A stretch of 48,990 nt of DNA from contig JBAXQO010000004.1 in assembly GCA_037131675.1 (NCBI GenBank), positions 1-48,990 of the forward strand, in the 5' to 3' direction. Origin of the DNA: a bacterium (GTDB lineage: Bacteria > Patescibacteriota > Minisyncoccia > Phycocordibacterales > CAIZIN01). Shown piece by piece: positions 16,452 through 47,880 of this stretch. Under the pieces are notes generated by a model, which did not search any database, had not been told where the DNA came from, and was given only the letters and a program-made list of their open reading frames with translations. Made by a program: the position numbers and the translations under genes. Within the stretch, counting starts at the first letter, position 1, and each line of letters starts with the position of its first letter.

Positions 16452-16636
16452 GTTGCAAGACTTGGAATCTCTCCCTCGACTAAAAATTTTCCGTCGAAAA
16501 TTTTTGTCTGGGCACCGCCTCATGAAATTTTCTGCTGAAAATTTCTATTCCGGCGTTCGAGTCCAAGGCGAAAGTGCTCCCAGCACTTTCTTCCCGCAGC
16601 AAATAAAAAACGGCTCTATTGAGCCGTTTTTTATTT
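16452..16636 (-). repeat. tRNA-3'-associated structured element (Gln copy)
   Basis: 16-bp hairpin 16601-16636; antisense to the tRNA 3' end at 16592-16600 and 16556-16567, split by a 24-nt hairpin insert; AGCA-loop (16524-16545) and GACG-loop (16482-16505) hairpins; 13/16 direct copy of the tRNA end at 16454-16469. Confidence 0.88.
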
Positions 16637-16637
16637 G

Positions 16638-16708
16638 CTGCGGGACTTGGACTCGAACCAAGATACACGGTTCCAGAAACCGTAGTCCTACCATTAGACG
16701 ATCCCGCA
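16638..16708 (-). tRNA. tRNA-Gln(CTG)
   Basis: On - strand acceptor TGCGGGA/TCCCGCA, anticodon arm ACGGT-ttCTGga-ACCGT, GGTTCGAGTCC. Confidence 0.95.
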
Positions 16709-16835
16709 ATGAAGAATACAATACTAGAAAACTGCCTTTTTTTCAAGTGCTGGAAAATTTTTAGATTTGCTGGAAATAGAAAATATAAAAATGTATAATT
16801 ACTTCTTAACTTTATTTTTTGAAAACTTTTATTTT

Positions 16836-17771
16836 ATGACACTTGCACTTATTGCACCTCTAATACTTACTGTTTTAGGACTTACTCTTTTTGAAGTAAT
16901 AAATAGTGTAGATAATGCAGTGATTAATGCAGAAGTGCTTGGGAAAATGTCTCCGTGGGCAAAAAAGTGGTTTCTTGTTTGGGGAATTTTTCTGGCAGTG
17001 TTTGTTGTTCGTGGAGTCTTGCCGTGGCTAATTTTGTGGGGCTCGGTTCCTGGTATCGGTCCATGGGAAGCCTTTGTAGCTTCATTCAGTTCGGATCCTA
17101 GAGTTTTGGGTGCCGTAGAGATGTCCAAGCCTATACTGCTTTGTGGGTCTGGGTTGTTTCTTGTGTATCTTTTTTTACATTGGTTATTTTTGGAAACAAA
17201 AGAATTTGGTTTGGTGGGTGAAAAATTTATTGCACGGCATGGTGTATGGTTTTATACTGTTGCGTCTTTGGTGCTCGGAGTAGTGGTGTGGAAGACTATT
17301 CATATAAATCCTATGATGGCAGTGGGCGCTGTTATGGGTTCAACTGCATTTTTTCTTGTTCATGGTTTTAAAGAAAACGCCGAACGTGCTGAAGAAAGAA
17401 TGTTGGAAGGGGACAACAGTATGTCTGATTGGTCAAAAATTTTATATCTTGAAGCGATTGATGCGTGTTTTTCTGTTGATGGTGTACTGGGTGCATTTGC
17501 CTTCACAACTGCTGTCCCGCTTATTCTTATTGGAAATGGTATTGGTGTGTGGGTCGTGAGAAAACTTACAGTAAGTAATGTTGATACAATTAAGAAATTT
17601 GTTTTTCTGAAAAATGGAGCTATGTACTCGATTTTTTCTCTTGGAATCATAATGCTTGCTGAGGCGTTTGGTGCACATATTCCTTCATGGGTTTCTCCAG
17701 TTATTACATTTTGTGTTATTGGTTTCTTTTTGTTCAAGTCTGTTGCGGTTTTGAATTCACAAAAAGCATAA
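16836..17771 (+). CDS. DUF475 (TerC-like) integral membrane protein
   Basis: LFEVINSVDNAVINA, LEAIDACFSVDGVLGAFAFT, LKNGAMYSI. ATG 16836 preferred over the track start at 16767. Confidence 0.85.
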   Translation: MTLALIAPLILTVLGLTLFEVINSVDNAVINAEVLGKMSPWAKKWFLVWGIFLAVFVVRGVLPWLILWGSVPGIGPWEAFVASFSSDPRVLGAVEMSKPILLCGSGLFLVYLFLHWLFLETKEFGLVGEKFIARHGVWFYTVASLVLGVVVWKTIHINPMMAVGAVMGSTAFFLVHGFKENAERAEERMLEGDNSMSDWSKILYLEAIDACFSVDGVLGAFAFTTAVPLILIGNGIGVWVVRKLTVSNVDTIKKFVFLKNGAMYSIFSLGIIMLAEAFGAHIPSWVSPVITFCVIGFFLFKSVAVLNSQKA

Positions 17772-17913
17772 TAGGCAAGTGCTTGTAATTAGAATGATAT
17801 TTGAAGTTTGTGTTCGGTGATTGTATTGGTAGGTATTGTGGTGATATATGGAAAAGAGAAGGAAACACCTTCTCTTATTCCTGTATTATATGTTTTTCCA
17901 AAAGATTTATAAT

Positions 17914-19773
17914 TTAAGGAAGGGATTTTATTCCGTCTTGAATTGTGACTACGGGAACATTTTTTAGTTTGAGATAGTCAACAACCTGATTAAAAATTGT
18001 CGGACTTATACTGTACTGAACACCACTGGTGTCAATTTGGTGGAAGCTAAGAATGAGCCATTCTTTTTTTGCGATTGCATTATCTATCCACTGCTCTGCT
18101 TTTGTTAAAGTAACAGTTGATTCCATTGACTGTCGTTCAAGTTGATATTTGTCTGAGGTGAGTGTTACATCTCCATCAATTGTTGCAGCTGCATCGCTAA
18201 ACCCATCACTTTTTACAAGATTTAATGTAGTGTTGTCATAATCTCCATATGGATAGGCAAACGAGTTGATTGGTCCCACATTTAGTGCGAGCAAATCATT
18301 TCGTGATCCTAAAATTTCTTTTTGTTGGTCTGCACTACTTAGTTGGGTAAGATATGGATGATCTTGTGTATGCGCGCCTATTTCATTTCCCGCGTTGTAT
18401 AGATCTTTTATTTGGGCAATACTCATATATCCAGAGAAACCATAATCCAAAAGCTGTTTACTTATAATGAAGAATGTTCCTTTTAAGCCTGCACTTTTTA
18501 GTTTAGGATATGCCACTTGATACTGTGACAGGGATCCATCATCGAAGCGTAGGGTTACCGCTCCGGTAGAAAATATTCCCTGATTTTGCTCTGGTGTTAA
18601 TGAAACATTGTCCATCGTGAGGAAACCAACTCCTTGAATGAGGTGAAATACACTCACGGCTTGCACACCGGTTGGTACTGAAAAAATTACAGATGTGTGT
18701 GTGAAGTTGCTAGCGGCTGGAAGAGCTTGAATATCTTTGTAGGTAAATGTTCCATTTGAATTTTGATACTGGAGAGTGATAAGACTTGGAATATTTGATA
18801 TGTAATCATCAGAATAGACATAGTTTCCTTGTGTAACAGCTATTGGATTGAAATACCATTTTGCATCACCTGATGTGTAGCTTGAAATACTCACTTTTAC
18901 TGCTTTACTGCCACTCACTCCAACTTCTGGGTAAGTGAATGTTCTAGTGTTTGTGCCCCAACCGCCTTTACCCCAAGAAAGTGGCAGCCCATTCGTACCA
19001 GACTGTTCGAATGCGGGGTTGGGTACAAGATTTCCAGAAACAGGTGTTGGTGGTTGAACAGTAGTTACTTCGCTAAGGGAGTATTCATCTGTTGTGAGGT
19101 TGCCAACACTGTTTATAAGATGAAATATTGTCATCGACTTTACATTTTGAGGTGCTGTAAATTGAACACTAACCTTTTTATATGAAGAACTTGGGTTTAT
19201 ATTAGAAACAAGTTCTGGATATGAAAATGATCCGTCGTTCATTGTGTAACGAGCGTCGATAATACTCTGTACGTCTGAGGTGTAATAATCAGAGAATTCG
19301 TATGTGGTGCCAGGAGTTACAGGAACATCGTCAAAATACCATTTTGCATCACCGCTTGTATAAGAGCTAATTGATATTTTTACAGCCTTGCTACTATTAT
19401 ATCCACTGACGGGATAGGTGAGTGAACGATCGTTTGTGCCATATCCTCCCTTGCTCCAATTGGTTGGAAGATTTGTTGTGCTTGAAGATTCTAAAGAATT
19501 ATTAATTATAAGGTTTGGTCCAAGAGAAGGAGTGGCTGTTGTCTGCTGTACAGGTGCGCTAAGTGAAGGAGTAAGTACGGTCTGTTGTATTGAGGGGGTA
19601 ATGAGCGATGGAGACAGGTCAACACTGGGAGATAAAATTCTTTGAGACCTTTTCACTTCTGGAGTTTGCGAACTTTCTCCGTTTGGTGTTTTTGCGGCTA
19701 GAGCAAGTGATGATGTTGAGAGTGAGATAATCACCATACAAGCTACTATCCATGAAGGCAATTTTTTTTTCAT
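17914..19773 (-). CDS. Secreted polysaccharide deacetylase (CE4/NodB) with two N-terminal CBM-like repeats
   Basis: Signal peptide MKKKLPS...ALA; duplicated W.KGG.GTN...SISSYTSGDAKWYF module; LRFDDG, HTQDH, FAYPYG, LSFH NodB motifs. Track start 19794; ATG 19773 preferred. Confidence 0.88.
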   Translation of the reverse strand: MKKKLPSWIVACMVIISLSTSSLALAAKTPNGESSQTPEVKRSQRILSPSVDLSPSLITPSIQQTVLTPSLSAPVQQTTATPSLGPNLIINNSLESSSTTNLPTNWSKGGYGTNDRSLTYPVSGYNSSKAVKISISSYTSGDAKWYFDDVPVTPGTTYEFSDYYTSDVQSIIDARYTMNDGSFSYPELVSNINPSSSYKKVSVQFTAPQNVKSMTIFHLINSVGNLTTDEYSLSEVTTVQPPTPVSGNLVPNPAFEQSGTNGLPLSWGKGGWGTNTRTFTYPEVGVSGSKAVKVSISSYTSGDAKWYFNPIAVTQGNYVYSDDYISNIPSLITLQYQNSNGTFTYKDIQALPAASNFTHTSVIFSVPTGVQAVSVFHLIQGVGFLTMDNVSLTPEQNQGIFSTGAVTLRFDDGSLSQYQVAYPKLKSAGLKGTFFIISKQLLDYGFSGYMSIAQIKDLYNAGNEIGAHTQDHPYLTQLSSADQQKEILGSRNDLLALNVGPINSFAYPYGDYDNTTLNLVKSDGFSDAAATIDGDVTLTSDKYQLERQSMESTVTLTKAEQWIDNAIAKKEWLILSFHQIDTSGVQYSISPTIFNQVVDYLKLKNVPVVTIQDGIKSLP

Positions 19774-19853
19774 GAGTGGTTTAAAAATTAGCAAACTTAT
19801 AATTAGTTATAATTGTAAATGAAGATCTGTGAATTTATGGTGAATATTAAAAT

Positions 19854-19882
19854 AAAAACCACGCCTTAGATGCGTGGTTTTT
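19854..19882 (-). terminator. Intrinsic terminator of the ECF/MacAB-like operon
   Basis: AAAAACCACGC-cttagat-GCGTGGTTTTT just past the 19900 stop. Confidence 0.75.
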
Positions 19883-19899
19883 AAGTTTGGGAAAGTTAT

Positions 19900-20331
19900 T
19901 TATTGTTGAGTGCTAGATGCGTTTGGTTGTGCTGGACGTATTTGGATTGTTTGAGCACTAAGACTACCGTCGGCATTTGGTGTGCCTAAGACAACAACTT
20001 GTTCGTTTGATGAAAGGTCATTAAATGTTCCGGGTACCGTTTTTGTAACGGGCGTATTTCCAGTAATCAAAACTATTCTTGAACCCCCATCACGTAGTTT
20101 GACTGTTAAACTTGTATTGTCTTTTGAAATGATTTCTCCCGTGACAGTATTTCCATTTAGAGTATTTCTACCCAAACCAGCTGGTCGGTTTCCATTGTTT
20201 TGTGAAAATTGCCCTCGTGCCTGATTTTGGTTTGCTGGAGTTTTATTTTGCGAGTAAAGGATCCCGCCATAAAACCCAACTCCTAGAATTATAATTCCAA
20301 CAAGGATAGTTATAATGTTTTTCTTATTCAT
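19900..20331 (-). CDS. DUF5666-like membrane-anchored OB-fold protein
   Basis: N-terminal TM; GEIISKDNTSLTVKLRDGGSRIV and V.VLG..NADGSL.A..I pattern. Confidence 0.65.
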   Translation of the reverse strand: MNKKNIITILVGIIILGVGFYGGILYSQNKTPANQNQARGQFSQNNGNRPAGLGRNTLNGNTVTGEIISKDNTSLTVKLRDGGSRIVLITGNTPVTKTVPGTFNDLSSNEQVVVLGTPNADGSLSAQTIQIRPAQPNASSTQQ

Positions 20332-20360
20332 TGTATTTTTATTTTAAAATTTTTATTAAT

Positions 20361-21581
20361 TTATTCATAACGCAATGCTTCGATTGGATTTAGTTTTGCT
20401 GCTCGTCTGGCAGGGTAGTAACCGAACACAATTCCTATTATAGTAGAAACGCTAAAGGCTAGAAGTATTGAAAACATGGATACTTGGGTTTGGAGAAGAC
20501 CGAAATATGTAATTGTAAAAGATATAATCCAACCAAGAATAATTCCAATAAGTCCGCCTGTAAATGTCAGCATTATTGCTTCTATTAGAAATTGTAGGCT
20601 GATGTCTTTGCTTTTTGCACCAATAGCTTTTCGAAGTCCAATTTCTCGTGTTCTTTCTGTAACCGTTGTAAGCATCATGTTCATAATTCCAATACCACCC
20701 ACAACTAAGGAAATTCCCGCAACAGACCCAAGAAGAATCGTGAATATTTGAGTAATACTTGATGCTGTTGCTGCCACATCAGATTGATTGAAGGTGCTGA
20801 AATCAGCTGTTTGTGTGGTTTTGTTGTGACGTTCAAGGAGGAGGTCTGTGATTTGTTGTTGGACGCTGGCAGTTGAGTTTGCGTCTTGAGCTGAAACACT
20901 TATTGTACTTACATATTGGTCTCCAGATAGGAATCTTTGGGATGTACTTATTGGAATGAATACTTGGTCATCCTGACTTCCGAAGCCAGATCCACCTTTT
21001 GGCAATGTAACTCCAATGATTTTAAATTCAATTTTATTTATGCGAATTTGTTGACCGACTGGATTTGACCCTGTTCCAAAAAGGTCATCTCTAACATTTG
21101 ATCCAAGTACAGCAACTTTACTTGCACTTTCAATATTTTGATCAGAAATAAATGAACCTTCGTTCACTGTAAGGTTTCTAACCGTTGGATATGCTGAAAC
21201 AGTACCTACAACTTGAGCATTTGTATTTTGTCCTTGTGCTGTCATTTGGTAGCGGCCATCTACTTCTGGGGCTATGCCCTTTATTCCTGTCACACCGGCC
21301 TGGATTGCATTTGAGTCAGCGAGAGTGATTGATTTAGCACTACCACGACCAGCACTTACGGCAACTCCAGGTCCTCTTTGTGCTCCTGGGGTAACAAGGA
21401 TTAGGTTTGAACCAATGGACTGAATGCTCGATTGAATTGAATTTTGAGCACCTTGTCCAATTGAAAGCATGGCAATAACTGAGCTTATACCGATTATGAT
21501 ACCTAGCATAGTGAGCCCTGAACGGACTTTGTTTGCCGATAGGGCAGTATATGTTTCGTGTAATATGTCGAATATTTTCAT
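20361..21581 (-). CDS. MacB/FtsX-like ABC transporter permease
   Basis: LTMLGIIIGISSV, GGIGIMNMMLTTVTERTREIGLRKAIGA, PARRAAKLNPIEALRYE. Confidence 0.93.
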   Translation of the reverse strand: MKIFDILHETYTALSANKVRSGLTMLGIIIGISSVIAMLSIGQGAQNSIQSSIQSIGSNLILVTPGAQRGPGVAVSAGRGSAKSITLADSNAIQAGVTGIKGIAPEVDGRYQMTAQGQNTNAQVVGTVSAYPTVRNLTVNEGSFISDQNIESASKVAVLGSNVRDDLFGTGSNPVGQQIRINKIEFKIIGVTLPKGGSGFGSQDDQVFIPISTSQRFLSGDQYVSTISVSAQDANSTASVQQQITDLLLERHNKTTQTADFSTFNQSDVAATASSITQIFTILLGSVAGISLVVGGIGIMNMMLTTVTERTREIGLRKAIGAKSKDISLQFLIEAIMLTFTGGLIGIILGWIISFTITYFGLLQTQVSMFSILLAFSVSTIIGIVFGYYPARRAAKLNPIEALRYE

Positions 21582-21582
21582 A

Positions 21583-22290
21583 TTAATTATGTCGAGCTAC
21601 TCTCTTATTATTGTTTTTCTTATCTTCGACAATAAGACCGTCTCTGATAAAAATAATTCTATCGGCATGTTCTGCTACGTCTGGTTCATGGGTGATCAGA
21701 ATAATAGTCCTACCTTGTTCTTCGTTGAGTCTTTGAAATGTTCCAAGTACTATTTCACCAGTTTTTGAATTTAGGTTACCAGTCGGCTCATCTGCGAGAA
21801 TGAGGGATGGATTATTAACAAGTGCTCGAGAGATTGCGACTCTTTGAATTTGTCCTCCAGAAAGTTGGTTCGAGAGGTGGTCGAAATGAGACTCGTCTAA
21901 ACCTGAAGCTAGGAGGGCTTTTTTGGCTCGTTCCTCTCGTTCTTTTTCTTCTACTCCAGAGTACACAAGCGGAAGCATTGTGTTTCGAAGTACTGTGGTG
22001 CGGGGGAGTAGGTTAAATGATTGGAAAACAAAACCAATTTTATCAGCTCGTATATCCGCAAGTTGATCGTCTGTTAGTGTTGAAACATCTTTTCCGTCTA
22101 GAAAATATGTTCCACTAGTAGGAGTATCGAGTGCTCCAAGTATGTGCATGAGAGTTGATTTACCTGAACCTGAGGGTCCCATGATTGCTATGAACTCTCC
22201 ATCTTCCACGTTGAAAGTCACTCCTTTGAGCGCTTGAAAAGCGTTTTCCCCAGAGTCATATGTTTTTGTTATGTTTTTAACTTCAATCAT
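21583..22290 (-). CDS. MacB/LolD-like ABC ATP-binding protein
   Basis: GPSGSGKST, GFVFQSFNLL, LSGGQIQRV, ADEPTGNL. Confidence 0.93.
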   Translation of the reverse strand: MIEVKNITKTYDSGENAFQALKGVTFNVEDGEFIAIMGPSGSGKSTLMHILGALDTPTSGTYFLDGKDVSTLTDDQLADIRADKIGFVFQSFNLLPRTTVLRNTMLPLVYSGVEEKEREERAKKALLASGLDESHFDHLSNQLSGGQIQRVAISRALVNNPSLILADEPTGNLNSKTGEIVLGTFQRLNEEQGRTIILITHEPDVAEHADRIIFIRDGLIVEDKKNNNKRVARHN

Positions 22291-22295
22291 ATTTT

Positions 22296-23921
22296 TTAAC
22301 GACCTCCTGTACGTATTACACTATTTCCGCCTCCACCTAATAGACTTGGTGTTGTAGATTTTGTTGTAGCTGTTGTGGCTGTTGTGGCTGTGACTGTTTT
22401 CGTGATAATTTTATCTCCTTCTTGTAGACCTGAAATTATTTCTGTTGATGTATCATCTGAAATTCCTACTTGAACTTCTTGTTGGGTTGGGGTTGTTGAA
22501 AGGTTTACTCCTTGACTGTTTGTTGTTGCTGTATTTTTGTCTACAACATCTACATAATGTGTTCCGTTTTGTATTTTGACTGCACTATTTGGCACTGTGA
22601 TAACATCTTGTTTCGCTTCTGTTATAATTGCAGCACTTACGCTCATTCCTGATTTTACACGGTCATCTTGTGTATCGAAATTAATTTTTACACTGTAGTT
22701 TACTACTCCTTGTGTAACTGTTCCTACAAGGTCAACCTCTGCGACCTTACCAGAAATAGAAAGTCCGTCTATGGCGTCAAATGTAAGAGTAGCTTGCTGA
22801 CCGACTTTAACTTTTGCAACATCAACTTCATTTAAGGTTACTTCGGCTATTTTTTGTTTAGTTATAAAAGTTCCAATATTTGTTCCGTTGCTTACTGTGG
22901 TTGCTTTATTTACGTTTAGTTGGGCAAGTACTCCGTCAAATGGTGCCCGAATAGAGGTGTCATCATAGGCTTGTTGTTTTTGCTGAATGCTTAGTTGTTG
23001 AGACTGTAGGTCGTATTTGTCTGGTCCTTGTTGTAATTTATCAAGTGATGAGGTTAACTCCTCTATATTTGTACGTGCCGAAAGCAAATTTGAAAGGTCT
23101 GTATTCATTTTGTTTGTCCATGAAATCAGATTATTATCTGCTGTTGTTTCGTCATTTGTATTTTTTGTTGCCTGTTGATTGTTGATATATTCAACGGCAT
23201 TCTTTGAATCTTTGATCGATTCATTCAAAGTTTTTACAGTATTGTAAGTCTGATCAATGAGAGACTGAATGCTTTGAGTTGTGCTGGTTCGTGTTGTATT
23301 TTGGTAGGAAACTATATTTGCATCATACATTTTTTTTGCAGCATCATAATTTACTCCGGCAGCATTTCGATTTGCTTTTGAAGTATCACTCAAACTCTGA
23401 ATCTTTTGGTCGCTTAGATAACCTCCAGATGTATAAAATAGATCATGCATACCGTTTATAATGTCTGGAAAATCAAGGAATGTGTTTACAACGGTATTAA
23501 AACCTGTGTCATAAGCTTTGGCGAGAGAATTTTGTGTTTGAAGAAGGGTTGTTTTGTCTGTCGGTTCTGTAAGTTTTTGTAAAGAAATATTTGCGTTTTC
23601 AAGATCGATTTGTGCGTTGTGTGGATCAACTTGTGCGATAAGGTCTCCTTCTTTTAGTTCTTGTCCAACAGTTGCATTTATGGAAATAATATTTCCAGAA
23701 GCCTTACTTTGAAGTGTGATTTGGTTTGAAGCAGATACCTGCCCGCTACCAGAAACAGAAGACACCAGTGTTCCTTTTTTAACTTCCGCAATCACATACT
23801 TAGGTGTAGTTGCTGTTGGGTTTTTCCATTTATAAATTTCGTAACCACCCCCAATAACAATCAACAGGAGAATTCCGCTAATAATTTTATGACTTAGTAT
23901 GTAATTTTTTATTGTGTGCAT
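22296..23921 (-). CDS. MacA-like periplasmic adaptor (membrane fusion protein) with long coiled coil
   Basis: VSSVSGSGQV, IRAPFDGVL, LNEVDVAKVKVGQ, VKSGMSVSA, VQVGISDD. Confidence 0.88.
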   Translation of the reverse strand: MHTIKNYILSHKIISGILLLIVIGGGYEIYKWKNPTATTPKYVIAEVKKGTLVSSVSGSGQVSASNQITLQSKASGNIISINATVGQELKEGDLIAQVDPHNAQIDLENANISLQKLTEPTDKTTLLQTQNSLAKAYDTGFNTVVNTFLDFPDIINGMHDLFYTSGGYLSDQKIQSLSDTSKANRNAAGVNYDAAKKMYDANIVSYQNTTRTSTTQSIQSLIDQTYNTVKTLNESIKDSKNAVEYINNQQATKNTNDETTADNNLISWTNKMNTDLSNLLSARTNIEELTSSLDKLQQGPDKYDLQSQQLSIQQKQQAYDDTSIRAPFDGVLAQLNVNKATTVSNGTNIGTFITKQKIAEVTLNEVDVAKVKVGQQATLTFDAIDGLSISGKVAEVDLVGTVTQGVVNYSVKINFDTQDDRVKSGMSVSAAIITEAKQDVITVPNSAVKIQNGTHYVDVVDKNTATTNSQGVNLSTTPTQQEVQVGISDDTSTEIISGLQEGDKIITKTVTATTATTATTKSTTPSLLGGGGNSVIRTGGR

Positions 23922-23942
23922 GATGAAATTATGATTATAATA

Positions 23943-24431
23943 TTATTTTTTTTGTGAAGGTTTTGGGTTGGTTGAAGTGGAGGATATATCGCTGGGTGGG
24001 GGAGGAAGTACTCTTATGAGCTTTGCTTCTATCTCTGACTTATCATTTGATGAACCTAACACAACTATGTGATCACCAATTTTCAAATCATTGATTGATA
24101 TGTTATTTCTGAATTCACGAATTATTGTATCGTCAGTAACTCTTATGTTTTTTTCTAGGTTTTCAGGTGTTGCAACAATGATTGTGGTTGAGGCTATATT
24201 AACAATCTTTCCAACAGCCCCACTCCCATTTGTAAAGTCTTTATCAAAAAATGAAAATGGTGATTCTAGATGATTCCCTTCAAAAGTCTGGTAGTATCTA
24301 TCACCAAATCTGAAAGAAAATTCTGCTTTCCTATAACCAACTAACACACCTAATTCAAAAATCATTAAAGCAATGACGAGTCTGGCTACTATAGTTAAAA
24401 TTTTTTTTGATTGGGGAGAGATATTTTTCAT
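23943..24431 (-). CDS. DUF5666-like membrane-anchored protein
   Basis: N-terminal TM; GAVGKIVNI...LKIGDHIVVLG...IEAKLIRV. Confidence 0.6.
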   Translation of the reverse strand: MKNISPQSKKILTIVARLVIALMIFELGVLVGYRKAEFSFRFGDRYYQTFEGNHLESPFSFFDKDFTNGSGAVGKIVNIASTTIIVATPENLEKNIRVTDDTIIREFRNNISINDLKIGDHIVVLGSSNDKSEIEAKLIRVLPPPPSDISSTSTNPKPSQKK

Positions 24432-24438
24432 ATATTAT

Positions 24439-38956: not shown

Positions 38957-38966
38957 GGGTTATGAA

Positions 38967-39377: not shown

Positions 39378-39508
39378 AAGGATTCCTTCCTAAAAACAAA
39401 CAGGGTTTAATTGCGGGGTTAGGGTGAGAGTATGCATTTTCCAATGTGCACAATCTGGTAAAAAATAGTACCACAAATTTTAAATAAAACAAGTTTAAAT
39501 TTAATTCT

Positions 39509-39764
<256 letters not shown>

Positions 39765-39828
39765 AACTATTTTATTGCTTGATATGTGGATAAAATATAT
39801 AACAAGCGCTGTGCTATAATATATCCAC

Positions 39829-40314: not shown

Positions 40315-40381
40315 AATAGGTTATAGACACTCACTTTTTCATGAAGGTCCTTTACAGGGCCGCTTGGGTGTTTTTGAACAC

Positions 40382-40390
40382 TTATCCACA
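40382..40390 (+). promoter_or_regulatory. Perfect DnaA box upstream of nrdJ
   Basis: TTATCCACA 72 nt before the ATG; a second perfect box (TGTGGATAA) at 39785-39793. Confidence 0.5.
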
Positions 40391-40461
40391 CGTGGGCTAT
40401 CCTTTTTTAGGAGTACAATAAATGAACAAAAATTTTAACAGCGGTTAACTACATCATACGT

Positions 40462-42765
40462 ATGGGAGATAAGAACAAAAAGAAAGTTTCAGTCGAGATT
40501 AATCAGATTCAAAAGCGAGACGGTAATATTGTACCGTTTGAGTTTGAAAAAATTGTACGTGCAATCAATAAATCGATGATTGCTTCAGATGAGGGCTCTC
40601 CAAAAGAGGCTGAGATGGTGGCGCGTAAAGTGGAGGCTGAACTTATACGTACAAAAAGGAAACATAAGAACTTCATACCAACAGTTGAAGGTATTCAGGA
40701 TGATGTAGAACGGGAACTTATTTTGAGTGAGTATGTAAAAACTGCTAAATCTTATATTATCTACCGTGAAGAGCGTTCAAAGCTCCGTGCAAAAGGCTTT
40801 CAAGTGCCTGAAAAAGTAAAGCTCCTTGCCGCTGAAAGTAAAAAAGCTTTTAAAAACCCACTTGGCGAATTCGTTTACTATCGAACCTACTCTCGTTGGA
40901 TAGAAGAAGAGGGCCGTCGTGAGACATGGACTGAGACAGTCGACCGATACATGTCTTTCATGAAAGAAAACTTAGGCAACAAGCTTAAGCCTGCTGAATA
41001 CAAAGAAGTTCGTGATGCTATCTTTTGTCACGAGGCAATGCCTTCAATGCGCTTGTTACAGTTTGCTGGTCCTGCCGCTCGCCGCAATCATGCGTGTGCA
41101 TATAACTGTTCCTTCAGTGCTCCTCAATCATTTCAGGATTTTGCAGAAATTATGTTTCTTTCAATGTCTGGTTGTGGTGTTGGTTTTTCTGCAGAAAGTT
41201 ACAGTGCTCAATCTCTTCCACAGATTAAATATCAAACAGGTAAGAAAATTAAATATGTAATTGAAGATAGTCGTGAGGGTTGGTCAGACTCATTTACTTT
41301 CGGTATGAAAAATTGGTTTGAAGGAAATGAGGTTGAGTTTGATTATTCAAAACTCCGACCAGCAGGTGCACGTTTGAAAACAACTGGTGGTAAAAGTTCT
41401 GGTCCTGACCCACTTAGACAAATTCATGACTTTACTCGAAGTAGAATTTTGGCACGACAAGGTGGACACCTTACTAACTTAGATGTTCACGATATTGTAT
41501 GCCAAATAGGAATGGGTGTTGTTTCTGGTGGAGTACGAAGAACGGCTCTTATTTCACTTTCTGATTTGAATGACAGTGATATTCGTGACGCAAAGAAAGG
41601 CCAGTTCTGGATGAGTGAACCTCAGCGATCTTTGGCAAACAACTCCGCTGTATATAACAACAAACCAACAAACGAAGAATTTTTGAAAGAATGGTTGGCA
41701 CTTATACAGAGTAAGGCGGGTGAGCGAGGTATCTTCAACCGAGGTGGTCTACAAAAAACTTTCCCTGAGAGTCGCGCAAAAATTTCAGAAGGATGGTGGG
41801 ACAAGTTTGGTGCAAACCCTTGTGGAGAAATAATTTTGCGTCCAAAACAGTTTTGTAATCTTACAGAGGTAGTTGCTCGCCATGAAGACAAAGAGGCAGA
41901 TTTATTACGAAAAATTCGTGTAGCAACAATCCTTGGAACATATCAGGCGTCATTTACAAACTTTGTATATCTTTCTCCTGAATGGAAAAAGAACTGTCAG
42001 GAAGAAGCCCTTCTCGGTGTGTCTATTACTGGTATGTGGGATTGTCCCGTGGTGCGTAAACCAGAAGTTTTGAGAAAACTTCGAGAGGAAACTGTAAAAG
42101 TAAATAAAATATATGCAAAGCGATTCGGCATTAATGCTTCCGCCGCAATCACGACAGTAAAACCTTCGGGGAACTTGTCACAGACAGTAGACTGTTCTTC
42201 TGGTATGCATCCTCGACACTCACAATACTATATTCGCCGAGTAAGAATTTCAGCAACTGACTCACTATTCAAAATGTTGAAAGATCAAGGTGTGGTGTAT
42301 CATCCAGAGGTTGGTCAGACAATGGAAAATGCGACAACTTATGTTATTGATTTTCCTGTAAAAGCTCCAAAGGATTCAATATTCAAAAATGACATGTCTG
42401 CAATTGAACAGCTTGAATTCTGGAAGACAGTAAAGGTAAACTATACTCACCATAATCCTTCAGTAACAATTTCAATAGGTGATGATGAATGGGTTGAGGT
42501 GGCAAGTTGGTTGTACAAAAACTGGGATTTGATAGGTGGACTCTCATTCCTTCCAAGAGACAACCATGTTTACCAGCTCGCTCCTTATGAAGAGATAGAC
42601 GAGAAGAAATATAACGAACTTATGAAGCGTTACACAAATATAGATTTTTCTAAAGTTGTTATATATGAGAAGGTGGACACAACTGATGTCAAAAAAGAAT
42701 TGGCATGTGCAGGTGGTGTGTGTTCAATAGACGATATTGTGGTGACGGCAGAGACAACAAAATAG
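40462..42765 (+). CDS. nrdJ: Class II (adenosylcobalamin-dependent) ribonucleotide reductase with N-terminal ATP cone
   Basis: IQKRDG...FEFEKI ATP cone; YNCSF, ANPCGE, TVKPSG, C-terminal CAGGVC; no small-subunit gene nearby. Confidence 0.93.
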   Translation: MGDKNKKKVSVEINQIQKRDGNIVPFEFEKIVRAINKSMIASDEGSPKEAEMVARKVEAELIRTKRKHKNFIPTVEGIQDDVERELILSEYVKTAKSYIIYREERSKLRAKGFQVPEKVKLLAAESKKAFKNPLGEFVYYRTYSRWIEEEGRRETWTETVDRYMSFMKENLGNKLKPAEYKEVRDAIFCHEAMPSMRLLQFAGPAARRNHACAYNCSFSAPQSFQDFAEIMFLSMSGCGVGFSAESYSAQSLPQIKYQTGKKIKYVIEDSREGWSDSFTFGMKNWFEGNEVEFDYSKLRPAGARLKTTGGKSSGPDPLRQIHDFTRSRILARQGGHLTNLDVHDIVCQIGMGVVSGGVRRTALISLSDLNDSDIRDAKKGQFWMSEPQRSLANNSAVYNNKPTNEEFLKEWLALIQSKAGERGIFNRGGLQKTFPESRAKISEGWWDKFGANPCGEIILRPKQFCNLTEVVARHEDKEADLLRKIRVATILGTYQASFTNFVYLSPEWKKNCQEEALLGVSITGMWDCPVVRKPEVLRKLREETVKVNKIYAKRFGINASAAITTVKPSGNLSQTVDCSSGMHPRHSQYYIRRVRISATDSLFKMLKDQGVVYHPEVGQTMENATTYVIDFPVKAPKDSIFKNDMSAIEQLEFWKTVKVNYTHHNPSVTISIGDDEWVEVASWLYKNWDLIGGLSFLPRDNHVYQLAPYEEIDEKKYNELMKRYTNIDFSKVVIYEKVDTTDVKKELACAGGVCSIDDIVVTAETTK

Positions 42766-42790
42766 CTCTAAATTTAGTTGTTAGTTTTTT

Positions 42791-42821
42791 AAGAAAACCC
42801 TTATGTCATAAGGGTTTTCTT
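42791..42821 (+). terminator. Intrinsic terminator after nrdJ
   Basis: AAGAAAACCCTTAT-gtc-ATAAGGGTTTTCTT. Confidence 0.75.
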
Positions 42822-42861
42822 ATTGTGGACTTTTTGATTAAAACGTGATATAATTAGGGGC

Positions 42862-43192
42862 GAGTCATGTCAGACAATCGCTCTGCGAAAGCAGGGAGGA
42901 AAGTCCGAACACGAACTTTTCGCAAGAAAAGTAGCAGGGTAGCGGGTAACACCCGTCGCGTCCATTGGATAAGTGGCGAGAGGTGCGAGCAGTGACGTCT
43001 AAGCCGAAAGGCGAAGAATTCCTTCGGGAATAATTTTGTGGAAACGCAAAAGTGAAACGGCCAAATCCTTACCTTCGTGCAAGGCCGTGTCCGTCTTTGA
43101 CGGAAGTGCCGCTTGAGGGTGGTGGCAACACTACTCCCAGATAAATGATTGTCTCCAGCAATGGAACAGAATTCGGCTTATCGACATGGTTT
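42862..43192 (+). ncRNA. rnpB: RNase P RNA
   Basis: GAGGAAAGTCC near the 5' end and AACAGAATTCGGCTTA near the 3' end; P1 GAGTCATGTC/GACATGGTTT; extended -10 TGATATAAT at 42846-42854. Confidence 0.95.
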
Positions 43193-43204
43193 ATTCACAT
43201 GATT

Positions 43205-43375
43205 ACACCCCGCACAACTTACGTTGTGCGGGGTGTGTCGCGTTCATTTTTTTGAAACTCTTTCTCGATGAAAGTTTCTCCGAGCACGAAAATTTTTTGC
43301 TAAAAATTTTCTCTGTACAGCGCCGTCGCACTTCCCAAGGCTCGGTTAAACTTCCACACTCGACGAGTTTCAAAA
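43205..43375. repeat. Perfect hairpin plus nested palindromic element with AGCA-loop hairpin after rnpB
   Basis: 14-bp perfect stem 43205-43236; nested TTTTGAAACTC/GAGTTTCAAAA (43250/43375), CCGAGC/GCTCGG, and a 10-bp stem 43288-43311 whose loop reads AGCA on the - strand. Confidence 0.7.
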
Positions 43376-43418
43376 GATTTCTCTGTTTTTGAAAATGGAA
43401 GTATAATGAATCGGATTT

Positions 43419-45098
43419 ATGATGCAAAGAATATTTTCTTACTTAAACAAAGAGATTAAGGGTCTACATGAGGCTGCATATTTTCTTGCAATCTTTACAT
43501 TTCTCTCCCAAGTACTCGGCCTTGTTCGTGATAAACTTTTAGCACACTTCTTTGGTGCAAGTGCAATGCTTGATGTTTATTATGCATCATTTAGAATTCC
43601 AGATTTAATTTTTGTCACCATATCTTCGCTCGTTGCAGTTTCGGCGCTCATTCCTTTTGTTGTTCGTGAAAATAAAAAAGGAAAAGAAAAAGAAGAACAT
43701 TTCATAAATAGTGTCTTTACAGTTTTTTCTTTTTCAATGGTACTTGTGATTGGTTTGGTGGCTATTTTTGTTCCAGTCCTATTAAAGTTTCTTGTTCCAG
43801 GAATTTACAATGGTACATATCAGTCAACCTTGATATTAATGACAAGGATTTTACTTCTATCACCTTTGCTTTTAGGGGTTTCTAACTTGCTTTCAAGTGT
43901 AAATCAATCCAGGAAAATATTTATTGTAAGTGCGATAAGTCCATTGCTTTATAATCTTGCAATTATATTTGGGATTGTTTTTCTGTATCCAAAGTATGGT
44001 CTAATTGGGCTAGTCATTGGTGTTATCTTCGGTTCTCTCCTCCATGTAATAATTCAAATACCTTCGATTGCTGTTTGTGGTATTAAGCTTTCGTTAACAA
44101 GAAATATAGACTGGAAAAGTGTTCGAGAAGTTATTACACTTTCTATTCCTAGAACATTTACATTGGCAGGGAATCAACTCTCAATGACCTCACTATTCTA
44201 CCTAGCTTCATTTATGACCGCGGGATCTATTTCTGTTCTGGCCCTTTCATATAATCTTCAATCTGTTCCGCTTGCTATTATCGGTCTTAGTTATTCATCG
44301 GCAGCATTTCCAACTCTTGCAAAACTATATTCAGAAGGAAAGAAGTCTGAATTTATCAGTCATGTCGTATCCGCAGCTCGACATATTATTTTCTGGTCTA
44401 TTCCTGTCGCTATTCTTTTTGTTGTTCTTCGTGCGCAGATTGTTCGTGTAATATTTGGCTCTGGTAATTTCAATTGGGACAACACACGTCTTACCGCGGC
44501 TTCACTTGCACTCTTTTCTCTTTCAGTCACAGCTCAAAGCCTAGAACTCCTTTTTGTAAGAGGTTTTTATTCTGCTGGTATGACAAAAAAACCTCTTGTT
44601 ATAAGTACGATTACGTCTGTGTTAGCTTTCGTATTTGCAATAGGGGGAGTGTTGATATTTAATTCGTTTTCTACTTTTAGAAGCATATTTGAAAGTATCT
44701 TCCGTGTAAGTGGAGTGCCCGGAACTGTCGCCTTAATGCTTCCTTTGGCTTTTACTCTAGCTGCACTTATAAATATAGTTTGGTTGTGGAGATTGTTCGA
44801 AAAAGATTTTTCTGGTTTTGGAAAAACTCTCCTACGAACTTTGTTTGATTCACTCGTCTCTTCATTGGTTATGGGTTATGTTGCATATATAAGTTTGGAT
44901 TTCTTTGGAAAGTTTTTGAAGCTTTCTACATTGTCTGGAATATTTTTGCAGGGTTTTATCTCTGGTATCTTAGGAATAATTGCAGGCACTTCAGTTTTAT
45001 TCTTTTTAAAGAATGCTGAAATTAAAGAAATAGCCAAAGCCCTTCATCATAAGATTTTGGGTACAAAAACCGTCGTACCAGAACAATCAGGTCTTTAA
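43419..45098 (+). CDS. murJ: Lipid II flippase MurJ/MviN
   Basis: SQVLGLVRD...FG, ASFRIPDL, SPLLYNLAII, LVRGFYS-like motif; about 14 TM segments. Confidence 0.92.
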   Translation: MMQRIFSYLNKEIKGLHEAAYFLAIFTFLSQVLGLVRDKLLAHFFGASAMLDVYYASFRIPDLIFVTISSLVAVSALIPFVVRENKKGKEKEEHFINSVFTVFSFSMVLVIGLVAIFVPVLLKFLVPGIYNGTYQSTLILMTRILLLSPLLLGVSNLLSSVNQSRKIFIVSAISPLLYNLAIIFGIVFLYPKYGLIGLVIGVIFGSLLHVIIQIPSIAVCGIKLSLTRNIDWKSVREVITLSIPRTFTLAGNQLSMTSLFYLASFMTAGSISVLALSYNLQSVPLAIIGLSYSSAAFPTLAKLYSEGKKSEFISHVVSAARHIIFWSIPVAILFVVLRAQIVRVIFGSGNFNWDNTRLTAASLALFSLSVTAQSLELLFVRGFYSAGMTKKPLVISTITSVLAFVFAIGGVLIFNSFSTFRSIFESIFRVSGVPGTVALMLPLAFTLAALINIVWLWRLFEKDFSGFGKTLLRTLFDSLVSSLVMGYVAYISLDFFGKFLKLSTLSGIFLQGFISGILGIIAGTSVLFFLKNAEIKEIAKALHHKILGTKTVVPEQSGL

Positions 45099-45147
45099 TA
45101 TTGAATCCCTCAACAAAAGGGCTTATTTCTGCTAATATGAGCCACAC

Positions 45148-46947
45148 ATGCAACATATTAGAAACTTTAGCATCATAGCTCACATTGATCACGGCAAGTC
45201 TACTCTTGCCGATCGTATGCTTGAAATCACACATACAGTAGAAGCACGAAAAATGCACGACCGAGTTCTTGATGATATGGAACTAGAAAAGGAGCGCGGT
45301 ATTACTATAAAAATGCGACCAGTGCGAATGGAATATAAAAATCCAAAAGACGGTCAAAATTACGTTTTAAACCTGATTGATACTCCTGGGCACATTGATT
45401 TCTACTACGAGGTATCGCGTGCACTAAAGGCTGTAGAGGGCTCTATTTTGCTAGTAGATGCTACTCAAGGTGTGCAGGCACAAACACTCACTACGCTTGC
45501 AATGGCACGCGAGACCGGTCTTGTAATAATTCCCGTTATCACAAAAATTGATTCACCGCTTTCTAGGGTGGATGAAGTGAAGTATGAAATGATAAGACTC
45601 CTTGATTGTAAGGAAGAGGACATTGTTTGTGTTTCAGGAAGAACAGGTGAGGGAGTAGATGAGCTTCTCCAGGAAGTGATTCGTCGGGTTCCTTCTCCTA
45701 AAACAACACACTCGGGACCAAAAGATATTCGTGCTCTTATTTTTGATTTTCAATATTCAACACATACTGGAGTAATTGTTTTCGTGCGACTTCTTGATGG
45801 AAAAATAAAGAAAAATGATCCTCTTTTGTTTAAAATTGCTAATGAGAAATTTAGCGCTCTTGAAGTTGGAACGTTTAATCCGCAAGAAACTCCAAAAGAT
45901 GAACTCTCAGCTGGGGAAATTGGCTACATTGTGACAGGTATAAAACGCCCAGGCATTGCCTCTGTGGGAGACACTATCACACATTCAACACACCCACTTC
46001 CAGAACTTCATGGATATATGACACCGAAGCCTGTAGTGTGGGCTTCTATATATTCTGAAAGTCAGGATGATTTTAATAATCTTCGCCAAGCGCTTGAACG
46101 TTTGAGACTTTCTGACTCATCATATGCTTTTGAAGAGGAATCCTCAGGAACTCTTGGGCGTGGATTTAGGTGTGGTTTTCTAGGAATGCTTCACTTGGAA
46201 ATTATTACTGAAAGACTTCGACGAGAATTTAACTTAGAGCTAATTGTTACAACGCCAAGCATTACCTATATTGTTACAAATAAACAAGGGAAAAAAGAAA
46301 TTATATATTCTCCTTCAAAATTTCCAGAGTATGGTGAGGTGGCTGAGGTGGAAGAACCATGGGTTAGTATGACCATTATTACTCCTCCGGCATATATTTC
46401 TCCAATAATGCAGACTCTTTTTGATCACGAAGCAGAAATTGGAGATTCTGAAAACTTTGGTGATGATAGAGCCTCAATCAAAGTTATGATGCCTCTACGT
46501 GAATTAATGAGGAACTTTTTTGATGAAATAAAAAGTGTTACTTCTGGCTACGCTTCGCTTTCCTACGAGATAGGGGAATTCAGAAAGGCAGACGTATGCA
46601 GATTGGATATTTTGATAAACGGTGAACCAATGCTTGCCTTTACGAGAATTGTTTCGAAACGTCGAGTTGTGGAAGATGCTCGTAAGGCGGCAGAAAAACT
46701 TCAGAAAGTTATGCCTCAACAAATGATTATTGTTAAAATTCAAGCGCAGGCATTAGGAAAAATTATCGCTTCTGAAACGCTTTCAGCCTTAAGAAAGGAT
46801 GTTACTCAACATATGTACGGTGGAGACATTACCCGAAAAATGAAGCTTCGTGAAAAGCAGAAAAAAGGGAAGAAAAAGATGCAGGAAATGGGTGCTGTAA
46901 ATATTCCTCATGAAGTATTTTTGAAGATGGTGAAAGGAGGGGAGTAA
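45148..46947 (+). CDS. lepA: Elongation factor 4 (LepA)
   Basis: IRNFSIIAHIDHGKSTLADR, GFRCGFLGMLH, YGGDITRKMKLREKQKKGKK. Confidence 0.98.
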   Translation: MQHIRNFSIIAHIDHGKSTLADRMLEITHTVEARKMHDRVLDDMELEKERGITIKMRPVRMEYKNPKDGQNYVLNLIDTPGHIDFYYEVSRALKAVEGSILLVDATQGVQAQTLTTLAMARETGLVIIPVITKIDSPLSRVDEVKYEMIRLLDCKEEDIVCVSGRTGEGVDELLQEVIRRVPSPKTTHSGPKDIRALIFDFQYSTHTGVIVFVRLLDGKIKKNDPLLFKIANEKFSALEVGTFNPQETPKDELSAGEIGYIVTGIKRPGIASVGDTITHSTHPLPELHGYMTPKPVVWASIYSESQDDFNNLRQALERLRLSDSSYAFEEESSGTLGRGFRCGFLGMLHLEIITERLRREFNLELIVTTPSITYIVTNKQGKKEIIYSPSKFPEYGEVAEVEEPWVSMTIITPPAYISPIMQTLFDHEAEIGDSENFGDDRASIKVMMPLRELMRNFFDEIKSVTSGYASLSYEIGEFRKADVCRLDILINGEPMLAFTRIVSKRRVVEDARKAAEKLQKVMPQQMIIVKIQAQALGKIIASETLSALRKDVTQHMYGGDITRKMKLREKQKKGKKKMQEMGAVNIPHEVFLKMVKGGE

Positions 46948-46990
46948 AAAAAGAGTGTTTTTACTTAGTTTTCATTTGGGTATTATTCAA

Positions 46991-47038
46991 GAAAATTCCC
47001 CGAGTTTTGGCAAAGCCCAAACTCGGGGAATTCATTTC
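46991..47038. terminator. Long hairpin, probable bidirectional terminator
   Basis: AATTCCCCGAGTTT/AAACTCGGGGAATT 14-bp stem between lepA and a convergent small ORF. Confidence 0.65.
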
Positions 47039-47059
47039 TTAATTATCTTTAAATCTTCA

Positions 47060-47170
47060 CTATCTCCACAGAGCTGGGAAATAAAGCAGTATCATGCTTA
47101 ATATAATGATTACACAAAAGACTGCGAATGTTCGGCGGATTATTTTTTTGTTTTGCTGTTTGAATAACAT
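47060..47170 (-). CDS. Small single-pass membrane protein (36 aa, not in ORF track)
   Basis: MLFKQQNKKIIRRTFAVFCVIIILSMILLYFPALWR; ATG 47170 to TAG 47060; basic N-terminus followed by a ~20-aa hydrophobic stretch. Confidence 0.6.
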   Translation of the reverse strand: MLFKQQNKKIIRRTFAVFCVIIILSMILLYFPALWR

Positions 47171-47254
47171 GATAAGAACACTATACCATAAATTAATCCT
47201 AATTCCAGTTGTTGAAAAGAGTCATTTTTAAATACTTTTGATATAATAAAAAAT

Positions 47255-47632
47255 GTGGAATTTCGTGATAGGCAAAAAATGTATCAGCTAGTGTATTCAA
47301 AAGTAACTATTTTGATTACAGTGTTCTTTATTATTGTCCTTATTCCTGGAGTTTACGGTATTTATAAAAAAGTAAGTGAGAGTGAAAAAGACAGAAAAGC
47401 TGCCGAGCGAGAGCTTGCAGATTTGGAAACACGTGAGCAAATGCTTGTATTGAAAGTTGACCGAGGTAATACAGACAGAGGACTTGAGGAACAGATTCGT
47501 GAAAAATATAATGTTGCAAAAGAAGGGGAATCAGTTATTGTGTTAGTTGATAAACCTATTGCTGCATCCACCACACAAAATGAAGCCAATGTATTTAAGG
47601 CTGTGTGGCAAAGGTTGAAAAAAGCATTTTAA
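47255..47632 (+). CDS. FtsB/DivIC-like septum formation initiator
   Basis: One TM, a coiled coil, then LEEQIREKYNVAKEGESVIVLV; GTG start 7 nt after TGATATAAT. Confidence 0.8.
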   Translation: MEFRDRQKMYQLVYSKVTILITVFFIIVLIPGVYGIYKKVSESEKDRKAAERELADLETREQMLVLKVDRGNTDRGLEEQIREKYNVAKEGESVIVLVDKPIAASTTQNEANVFKAVWQRLKKAF

Positions 47633-47635
47633 AAA

Positions 47636-47706
47636 GCGGGTATTGTTTAGTGGTAGAATGCGACCTTCCCAAGGTTGAGACGCGAGTTCGATTCTCGCTA
47701 CCCGCA
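47636..47706 (+). tRNA. tRNA-Gly(CCC)
   Basis: Acceptor GCGGGTA/TACCCGC, anticodon arm CGACC-ttCCCaa-GGTTG, GTTCGATTC; discriminator A. Confidence 0.95.
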
Positions 47707-47707
47707 C

Positions 47708-47880
47708 AAATAAAAAACGGCATGTGCCGTTTTTTTTATTTGTGCGGGTAAGAAAGCTCCTGTGGAGCTTTCGTGCGAGAATCGAAGGGCGTAGCGGGAC
47801 CCAAGCCAGCAGGCTTGGGAGCGAGCCAGGGTCGTGAAAATTTTGGTTTGACGAAACCAAAATTATTCCTGACCGATTTT
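47708..47880 (+). repeat. tRNA-3'-associated structured element (Gly copy)
   Basis: Hairpin 47708-47741; antisense GTGCGGGTA 47742-47750 and GCGAGAATCGAA 47775-47786 split by a 24-nt hairpin insert; AGCA-loop 47800-47819; GGTCG...TGACCGA with an 11-bp GACG-loop hairpin 47839-47864. Confidence 0.88.

Follow-up and report, generated by a model that had tools for sequence, protein, structure and literature searches.

A family of short candidate insertion elements carrying antisense copies of gene 3' ends in Patescibacteria

Why should two unrelated tRNA genes of a small bacterial genome be followed by trailers of the same unusual build? The question is raised by contig JBAXQO010000004.1 of the Patescibacteriota assembly GCA_037131675.1 (746 kb, 33 contigs, 37% GC, 93% complete), in which we analyzed a stretch of 48,990 nucleotides, hereafter the window (contig C4 of the genome). 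Within it, tRNA-Gln(CUG) and tRNA-Gly(CCC) are each followed by an antisense copy of their own last 21 nucleotides, split into 9 and 12 nucleotides by an insert of 24 nucleotides. The initial annotation of the window took the two loci as a special pair, whose bulged hairpin would mimic or compete with the geometry of the tRNA. We find that both belong to a family of elements of 150-200 nucleotides, always in the orientation of the host gene, that lie at gene 3' ends. Our favored reading, to which we assign a probability of roughly 0.7, is that these are protein-less, nucleic acid-guided and re-addressable insertion elements, each with a matched antisense 'address', that are mobile or were so formerly. 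The family is real and appears to be undescribed in public sources, as full-text literature searches returned no paper describing it.

The Gln and Gly loci and the element family

We called the tRNA genes of the window, six in total, with ARAGORN and Rfam, and checked the parts of the trailers by reading the sequence and by string matching. On the reverse strand, tRNA-Gln(CUG) occupies positions 16637-16708 (ARAGORN; Rfam tRNA, 57.6 bits), and the segment to which the antisense copy corresponds is its last 21 nucleotides, from T54 to C74 (TTCGAGTCCAAGTCCCGCAGC, 16637-16657). A terminator-type hairpin, AAATAAAAAACGGC-TCAATAGA-GCCGTTTTTTATTT with TCAATAGA as its loop, directly abuts C74 (16601-16636). 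It is followed by the first piece of the antisense copy, GCTGCGGGA, whose 9 nucleotides match the acceptor 3' strand, N73 and C74 at 9/9 positions (16592-16600), by a side hairpin of 24 nucleotides, AGAAAGTGCTGGGAGCACTTTCGC, with a 9-bp stem flanked by 5'-A and GC-3' (16568-16591, -11.6 kcal/mol), and by the second piece, CTTGGACTCGAA, whose 12 nucleotides are antisense to the T-loop and the 3' strand of the T-stem at 12/12 positions (16556-16567). We refer to the two pieces as the distal and the proximal guide, according to their distance from a structured core that lies next to them (16469-16555). The predicted fold of this core consists of P1, with a tandem G-A internal loop and a hairpin, and of a second hairpin of a variant that we call type C, GGTGCCCAGAC...AGTCGAGGGAGAG. 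The element ends in a decayed direct copy of the tRNA 3' end, ATTCCAAGTCTTGCAAC (16452-16468), which is identical to AGTCCAAGTCCCGCAGC at 13 of 17 positions. We take this copy to be the remnant of the ancestral gene end, in analogy to tRNA-Phe and tRNA-Met, whose repeats are perfect (see below).

The Gly locus lies on the forward strand and repeats the same order. tRNA-Gly(CCC), again called by both ARAGORN and Rfam (47636-47707), contributes its last 21 nucleotides as the matched segment (47687-47707, string match). The hairpin that follows scores as terminator-like, with ten pairs and then a T-run (47708-47741), and leads into the distal guide GTGCGGGTA (47742-47750, 9/9 antisense), the side hairpin AGAAAGCTCCTGTGGAGCTTTCGT of 24 nucleotides with a 9-bp stem (47751-47774, -13.5 kcal/mol), and the proximal guide GCGAGAATCGAA (47775-47786, 12/12 antisense). 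The predicted core (47787-47874) is of type A, with the tandem G-A loop in P1 and a P2 closed by GGUCGUG...CCUGACC. Behind it, GATTTTACAC (47875-47884) would be a strongly decayed remnant of the direct tRNA 3'-end copy, a match that is weak on its own.

These data bear out in full what had first been seen at the two loci. The antisense match of the last 21 nucleotides is perfect (21/21) in both cases, and about 2e-9 split matches of this kind within 300 nucleotides would be expected by chance at each locus. A GAAAG/CTTTC base is common to the two inserts, which differ in their upper stems and each of which forms a fully paired 9-bp stem. Both trailers open with the identical 14-mer AAATAAAAAACGGC, and no shuffle reached the observed count. 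The long duplex between tRNA 3' end and antisense copy, with its bulged hairpin, is also confirmed as the stable predicted fold of the read-through RNA, in which it replaces the cloverleaf (minimum free energy of -127.5 and -122 kcal/mol, z = -12.2 and -9.9, for the two loci). The described twin architecture is therefore exact in its parts and incomplete as a whole: it stopped at 16556 and 47786, the core-proximal ends of the Gln and Gly antisense segments, and so left out the core of about 87 nucleotides and the distal direct repeat.

Scanning all 43 tRNA genes of the genome for antisense copies of their own 3' ends showed that Gln and Gly are not a special pair, since about half of these genes carry the same plan. 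The genome holds 22 element copies. Every copy runs from the antisense segment into the conserved structured core, and several close with a direct repeat of the tRNA 3' end. At tRNA-Phe (contig C12) and tRNA-Met (contig C3) this direct repeat is perfect over 18 and 12 nucleotides, respectively, and is followed by a second terminator. Hairpins that abut the 3' end of a tRNA gene are present only at the element-bearing tRNAs. The core also occurs behind an rpsI-like gene and behind a ribosomal protein gene, in each case with an antisense copy of the end of that gene, and further hosts across the family are the transfer-messenger RNA (tmRNA) gene, behind which it lies, and topA, inside which it lies.

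Two more copies are found in the window. Behind tRNA-Asp (3-77), on the forward strand, the copy at 137-227 comprises a proximal guide (137-146), a type A core (147-213) and an exact direct repeat, GAGTCCCATCACTC (214-227). Behind tRNA-Ser(GGA) (39677-39764), on the reverse strand, the copy at 39528-39625 comprises a proximal guide (39615-39625) and a core (39528-39614). R1, a covariance model that we built from an alignment of ten type A cores, matches the Ser(GGA) core with E = 4.6e-21, the Gly core with E = 6.7e-18, and the Gln core, at 16472-16555, with E = 3.6e-10. The Gly core is itself a member of that alignment (A2).

Across the order, R1 matches the core in 53 of 61 genomes, with 1-51 copies each, and several complete genomes have none. 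Among the 137 copies with enough flanking sequence, the hosts span tRNAs of 18 amino acid classes, tmRNA and non-tRNA sequence. A chimeric assembly of the Gln and Gly loci can be discarded because the same plan recurs at more than 100 loci in these 53 genomes. The 'shared copying mechanism' that had been considered for the pair was thus right in spirit: there is one element family, with a constant scaffold and an antisense segment that matches the host gene, and the two loci look like twins because they inherited one scaffold, whereas the guide of each copy matches the gene behind which that copy sits.

We found no open reading frame inside the 150-200 nucleotides of the elements. At gathering thresholds, Rfam matched only tRNAs and RNase P RNA over the whole window, and at E <= 10 it returned no element family, intron or ribozyme at the Gln and Gly loci. 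Among viral contigs (IMG/VR), 70 exact 15-mer matches were found, a number close to our rough chance estimate, and only one of them is a true match to the model. With a single true copy among 70 candidates, we rejected a viral carrier of the element. That copy (L148) lies on IMGVR_UViG_3300033463_005745, a viral-classed contig of 34.7 kb, and consists of tandem elements; no tRNA was detected in the stored piece of 3.3 kb. The contig could be a misfiled fragment of a patescibacterial genome or a phage that carries the element.

Elements also follow one another in cellular genomes. Behind one ribosomal protein gene of the genome under study (G000 C19:~4600-4800, reverse strand), two successive elements form a tandem or nested array with three copies of GGATGTGATATAAGAAA. 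Behind one tRNA-Leu of a relative (L002, G003 C7), two successive elements each have their own hairpin, guide, side hairpin and core. In addition, three copies from three genomes (L012, L022 and L082, from G049, G034 and G014) form a subfamily with an extra conserved 3' module, GAAAGYGTACTCRCGG, between the end of P2 (GTGACC) and the direct repeat, which in this subfamily opens with a shortened T-arm (GCGG-TTC-CGCC).

Fold of the core and rules of the guide

The consensus of the ten type A cores is about 87 nucleotides long and has two domains. P1 is made of a 3-bp helix, the tandem G-A internal loop and a hairpin, while P2 is a long hairpin closed by GGUCGCG/UGUGACC. In this first alignment, 19 of the 33 pairs are compensatory. 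We then aligned 139 copies from the fetched loci, 137 of them distinct. Across the distinct copies, 93.6% of the cells of the predicted pairs are paired, compared with 35-53% in slid controls, and double-sided changes are seen at all 33 pairs. Variant cores keep the P1 motif, with CCUU/AAGG and GGUU/AACC as compensatory alternatives; type B cores lie behind Tyr, Arg, Lys and Arg(TCG) tRNAs, and type C cores behind Gln, Ile and Ser tRNAs. This pattern of covariation indicates that the core is a real folded structure. At one of its pairs 104 copies have G•U, and at another both GU and GC occur. As these wobble pairs are possible only on the gene-sense strand, the folded strand has the polarity of the host gene, with the antisense segment on its 5' side.

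For the antisense segment, we counted matches with at most one mismatch within 200 nucleotides upstream of the 137 copies with enough flank. A core-proximal match of at least 10 nucleotides is present in 79 copies, while mismatched-locus controls mostly give 0-6 nucleotides. The side hairpin, present in 38 copies, obeys strict rules. It comes after 10-13 nucleotides of proximal guide in 37 of the 38, its insert measures 23-26 nucleotides in 36, its stem is exactly 9 bp in 32, and 37 are distinct in sequence; the usual flanks are 5'-A and GU-3'. The guide is interrupted by a side hairpin once it is longer than about 12 nucleotides. At the homologous tRNA-Gln loci of relatives, the insert keeps its position and its length. 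The GAAAG/CTTTC base, which the Gln and Gly loci have in common, is not kept there and changes with compensation, for example to GGAAG/CTTCC.

Does the 9+12 split reflect the shape of a tRNA? The spacing recurs behind tmRNA and at L017 and L133, two sites without a detected tRNA. The split is therefore probably a property of the element, and this recurrence at hosts other than tRNAs led us to reject tRNA mimicry as its cause. The split coincides with the junction of acceptor and T-stem because the 7 nucleotides of the T-loop and the 5 nucleotides of one T-stem strand add up to 12. The spacing may still have evolved to suit tRNAs, since these are the main hosts. Other features of the family also speak against a role of the bulged hairpin in tRNA geometry: the element lies behind or inside protein genes as well, with shorter guides and without the side hairpin (the rpsI-like gene and topA), and a terminator separates the tRNA from the antisense copy.

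The distal direct repeat follows a rule of its own. In 29 of 40 copies it starts 3 nucleotides inside the proximal end of the duplex that guide and target can form, and it always starts after a C, namely at TTC|R in T-loops and at GTC|A or CAC|A at protein genes. In the T-loop of tRNA genes, this places the junction to the ancestral copy between C56 and R57. The guide thus pairs through its 3' end with the 3 nucleotides upstream of the junction and through the remainder with the downstream gene end, and its 5' part can pair with either copy of that end. We infer that the antisense segment acts as a guide directing insertion.

Insertion and the origin of the duplicated gene end

Sites with and without the element can be compared between relatives. 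The tRNA-Gly(CCC) locus, with the same flanking genes, is free of the whole module in five genomes, four of the same genus (G001-G004) and one of the same family (G007), which is a further argument against a function of the module in shaping this tRNA. The tRNA-Phe site is empty in another relative (G009), where the tRNA gene, with its encoded CCA, runs directly into a native terminator. This terminator corresponds to the right-hand terminator of the tRNA-Phe locus in the genome studied here, and the right-hand copy of the gene end still reads GGCACCA. Together, these observations identify the right-hand copy as the ancestral gene end, upstream of which the element sits. The functional left-hand copy (G000 C12:5140-5460) keeps only C74 whereas the right-hand copy encodes CCA, so the insertion removed the encoded CA of the gene. 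Another difference between relatives concerns two tRNAs with an identical 21-nucleotide end: the relatives have the element behind tRNA-Gln(UUG), a site that is empty here, and this genome has it behind tRNA-Gln(CUG). Given the element-free Gly and Phe loci, the comparison of sequences indicates that the elements are insertions at gene 3' ends.

The tRNA-Phe locus is the only one where the origin of the duplicated gene end can be traced. Its two copies are identical over 18/18 positions, and the guide differs from them at 4 positions, which reproduce the covarying pattern of the tRNA-Phe T-stem of another species. This combination implies that the duplication was made from the target, and that the guide was imported together with its mismatches. 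Campbell-type integration of a circle bringing its own copy of the gene end is ruled out at this locus, as both copies are of the host type and the guide is of the donor type. At tRNA-Phe, the sequences thus point to a target-derived duplication.

A second locus pair bears on how the element changes its host. It consists of the copies behind tRNA-Arg(GCG) and tRNA-Lys(UUU), whose sequences almost coincide from the side hairpin onwards and which have different terminator hairpins. The two host tRNAs share the T-arm, the distal guides differ at 1 of 9 nucleotides, and in the Lys(UUU) element 7 of the 9 distal guide positions fit the new host. The pair has the appearance of a jump from tRNA-Arg(GCG) to tRNA-Lys(UUU) that was seeded by the proximal guide. 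Taken with the imported guide of tRNA-Phe, it suggests that guides may be corrected afterwards by a hairpin-templated process. The gene that we give as tRNA-Lys(UUU), which carries a type B element, is called a suppressor, tRNA-Stop(tta), by ARAGORN (G000 C14:16842-16915, reverse strand). Its anticodon loop reads CUUUUAA, and tRNA-Lys(UUU) is otherwise missing from the genome, so that the call most likely reflects a mis-registered anticodon in an ordinary tRNA-Lys(UUU).

In topA, which encodes topoisomerase I with C-terminal zinc-ribbon repeats, we observed insertions within the 3' coding region of two genomes (L068, G043 C7:423188-423974; L090, G052 C30:36301-37087). The element supplies a new stop, so that the protein ends in ...HKLAK* where the ancestral copy has ...HKLEEKKGGKKIG*. 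In L068 the duplicated segment is 62 nucleotides long (61/62 identical), and the guide covers only the first 11 nucleotides of the duplication.

Possible modes of movement and rival explanations

In the favored reading, the order of parts on the gene-sense strand is the gene end X, the terminator-type hairpin T, which is part of the element, the antisense guide X', the core, whose P2 holds the conserved G•U, and then the ancestral X with its original terminator. The core-proximal 10-13 nucleotides of the guide would serve as the seed that pairs with the gene-sense strand, the core would be joined through its 3' end to the target at the +3 position, 3 nucleotides inside the duplex of guide and target, and the target segment covered by the guide would be duplicated from the target itself. 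The host gene remains functional because an intact gene end and a terminator precede the element. Catalysis could come from a ubiquitous enzyme of the host, from a factor provided in trans, or from the folded core. A more specific proposal, which we advance tentatively and consider possible though doubtful, is that a new class of protein-less, re-addressable mobile elements has as its active agent the core with its 5' guide, in the form of folded RNA or single-stranded DNA. Such an agent would find the sense strand of a heavily transcribed gene through seed pairing over 10-13 nucleotides, and its 3' end would be joined by ubiquitous host enzymes (polymerase, ligase, topoisomerase, nuclease) or by its own catalysis. 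Duplication of the gene end would let the host gene survive, and hairpin-templated correction would later re-match the guide to the new host.

Several observations weigh against guided insertion. No catalyst was found among reverse transcriptase (RT), IS110 DEDD, TnpB, HUH-Y1 and Cas1, in a search that did not include tyrosine and serine recombinases (PF00589, PF00239), since Xer-type genes are to be expected in every genome. In 58 of the 137 copies there is no clean guide match within 200 nucleotides, although these copies may be old, nested or diverged. No promoter-like site was seen inside the Gln or the Gly element, and the terminator precedes both guide and core. The 62-nucleotide duplication in topA, with its 11-nucleotide guide, is unexplained if the duplication equals the footprint of the guide. 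The rewriting of the guide for a new target is not accounted for either. Finally, the Gln and Gly guides are perfect (21/21) though the distal repeats have decayed to 13/17 or less, which could mean that the hairpin is selected for a function at the locus.

This last point also supports the idea of a 3' module that benefits the host, namely a selected cis-acting device duplicated between loci, which would form a read-through duplex for RNase III-type decay or processing, or would strengthen or insulate termination. The dominance of the long duplex in the fold of the read-through RNA fits this idea, as does the terminator-like score of the Gly hairpin. We nonetheless judge it quite improbable. 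Relatives manage without the element at their orthologous Gly and Phe loci, related genomes have anywhere from 0 to 51 copies, the element is also found behind and inside protein genes and in tandem arrays, and the duplicated gene end and the second terminator are scars of insertion; moreover, the covarying core of about 87 nucleotides would be left without a role. The elements could also be non-autonomous relics of something driven by a protein, either an island with a tRNA-targeting integrase or a PATE- or REP-like element with a HUH-Y1 or other transposase; in that case the protein would recognize a hairpin end, of which the antisense segment is no more than a part. Integrase islands, prophages, integrative and conjugative elements and their miniature derivatives do insert in the same region of tRNA and tmRNA genes, from the T-loop to the 3' end, and, like our element, they keep the gene intact through a replaced or duplicated 3' end, leave a direct repeat at the far junction and accrete in tandem. 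In contrast to them, the element has 150-200 nucleotides, a covarying structured core and no open reading frame, and it also hits the ends of protein genes. An island family has one attachment core, whereas within a single genome the element scaffold is found at more than 20 different ends of tRNA and protein genes, for each of which it has a matching antisense segment. Dozens of targets with matched antisense are not expected of a sequence-specific integrase, and the duplication at tRNA-Phe is derived from the target rather than carried in. The hairpin-rich build and the single orientation of the element recall IS200/IS605 elements, PATEs and REP/BIME with RAYTs, which are also small, strand-specific and free of terminal inverted repeats, and whose cleavage and target sites are recognized through pairing with a short internal guide next to a hairpin foot. 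Genes with the HUH Y1 domain (RAYT/IS200-like, proteins of about 215-290 amino acids) are present in 39 of the 61 genomes of the order, with up to 13 in one of them (G050). IS200/IS605 guides, however, have 4-5 nucleotides and read one fixed motif, while those of the element have from 5 to 21 or more and differ between copies; IS200/IS605 insertions leave no target duplication, and the direct repeats of the element range from 10 to 62 nucleotides. Y1 gene counts are not associated with element copy number across the 61 genomes (P = 0.31): there are none in the genome studied here (22 copies), in G037 (21 copies) or in G052 (16 copies), and G050, with its 13 genes, has a single copy. As the tandem G-A motif and the conserved G•U are, in addition, signs of a folded, RNA-like scaffold, we regard a protein-driven relic as rather unlikely.

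Such a scaffold raises the question of a minimal intron-like ribozyme, in which the core with its internal guide would reverse-splice into abundant transcripts, and reverse transcription and recombination would fix the DNA copy. The topology is suggestive. As with P1/P10 of group I introns and the exon-binding and intron-binding sites (EBS/IBS) of group II introns, a single antisense segment within the element reads the sequence on either side of the insertion point; the 3 nucleotides before the junction pair with its 3' end, with the +3 offset seen in 29 of 40 copies, and the first nucleotides of the element compete with the downstream 'exon', here the downstream gene end, for the 5' part of the guide. 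The hosts are highly expressed, the orientation is always sense, the conserved G•U gives the fold an RNA-like character, and class IIC introns home next to terminator hairpins, with which the element is likewise associated. RT genes occur in 27 of the 61 genomes and show a weak positive association with copy number (P = 0.029). This association is lost when the genus of the genome studied here is left out (P = 0.17), and RT is absent from this genome as well as from G043 and G037, which have 36 and 21 copies. A core of two hairpins and about 87 nucleotides is far smaller than group I and group II cores; neither a group I P3-P9 core with its G-binding site nor the group II domains I-VI with the AGC triad of domain V was recognized in it, no Rfam ribozyme matched, and there is no intron-encoded protein. 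Simple reverse splicing does not give a duplication derived from the target, while here the gene end is duplicated, and the gene can function without splicing, its intact end lying ahead of the element; the terminator, too, comes before the core. We therefore hold this explanation to be very improbable, and return to guided insertion by a short element as the reading that we prefer.

RNA-guided systems with their own enzymes resemble the element in other respects. The bridge or seek RNAs of IS110/IS1111 are structured non-coding scaffolds with target-complementary segments split around a hairpin, and the 3' end of the scaffold of TnpB/IscB omega RNAs abuts target sequence derived from the flank. 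IS110/IS1111 elements, however, have an adjacent gene for a DEDD or serine recombinase, and TnpB/IscB a nuclease gene that overlaps the scaffold, while our element encodes nothing and the two halves of its guide read the same strand contiguously. Casposons rely on a Cas1-family integrase. Above cut-off, TnpB (PF07282) was found in 1 and Cas1 (PF01867) in 2 of the 61 genomes. The genome studied here, at 93% completeness, has no match to RT, IS110 DEDD (PF01548), TnpB, HUH-Y1 or Cas1. We rejected these five as movers of the element because each is absent from this genome, Y1 is uncorrelated with copy number, and the association of RT depends on one genus.

If the favored reading is true, these would be the smallest known elements to choose their insertion site by base pairing without an encoded protein, found in some of the smallest bacterial genomes. 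They would stand as a new kind beside group II introns, CRISPR-associated transposons, IS110 bridge RNAs and TnpB/IscB, and would hold out the prospect of a very compact scaffold for programmable insertion. The element explains the GC-rich structured 'trailers', the duplicated tRNA ends and the extra terminators behind half of the tRNA genes in such genomes, all of which could pass for regulatory RNAs, pseudo-tRNAs or errors of assembly. It also rewrites the 3' ends of essential genes, with the loss of the encoded CCA in tRNA-Phe and the gain of a new C-terminus in topA, and is therefore a force in the evolution of tRNAs and gene ends in Patescibacteria.

Two further features of the window lie outside the element family. 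Downstream of tRNA-Thr(CGT), on the forward strand at 4420-4700, a G+C-rich stretch (GGGGCCGGGGGTAGTCCTCC...CCCCCCCCCGGAGCTCCCCC...) stands out in the A+T-rich genome and contains neither an element core nor an obvious gene. At 42862-43196, also on the forward strand, Rfam identifies a bacterial class A RNase P RNA with 107.1 bits against a gathering threshold of 100, which at 335 nucleotides is short.

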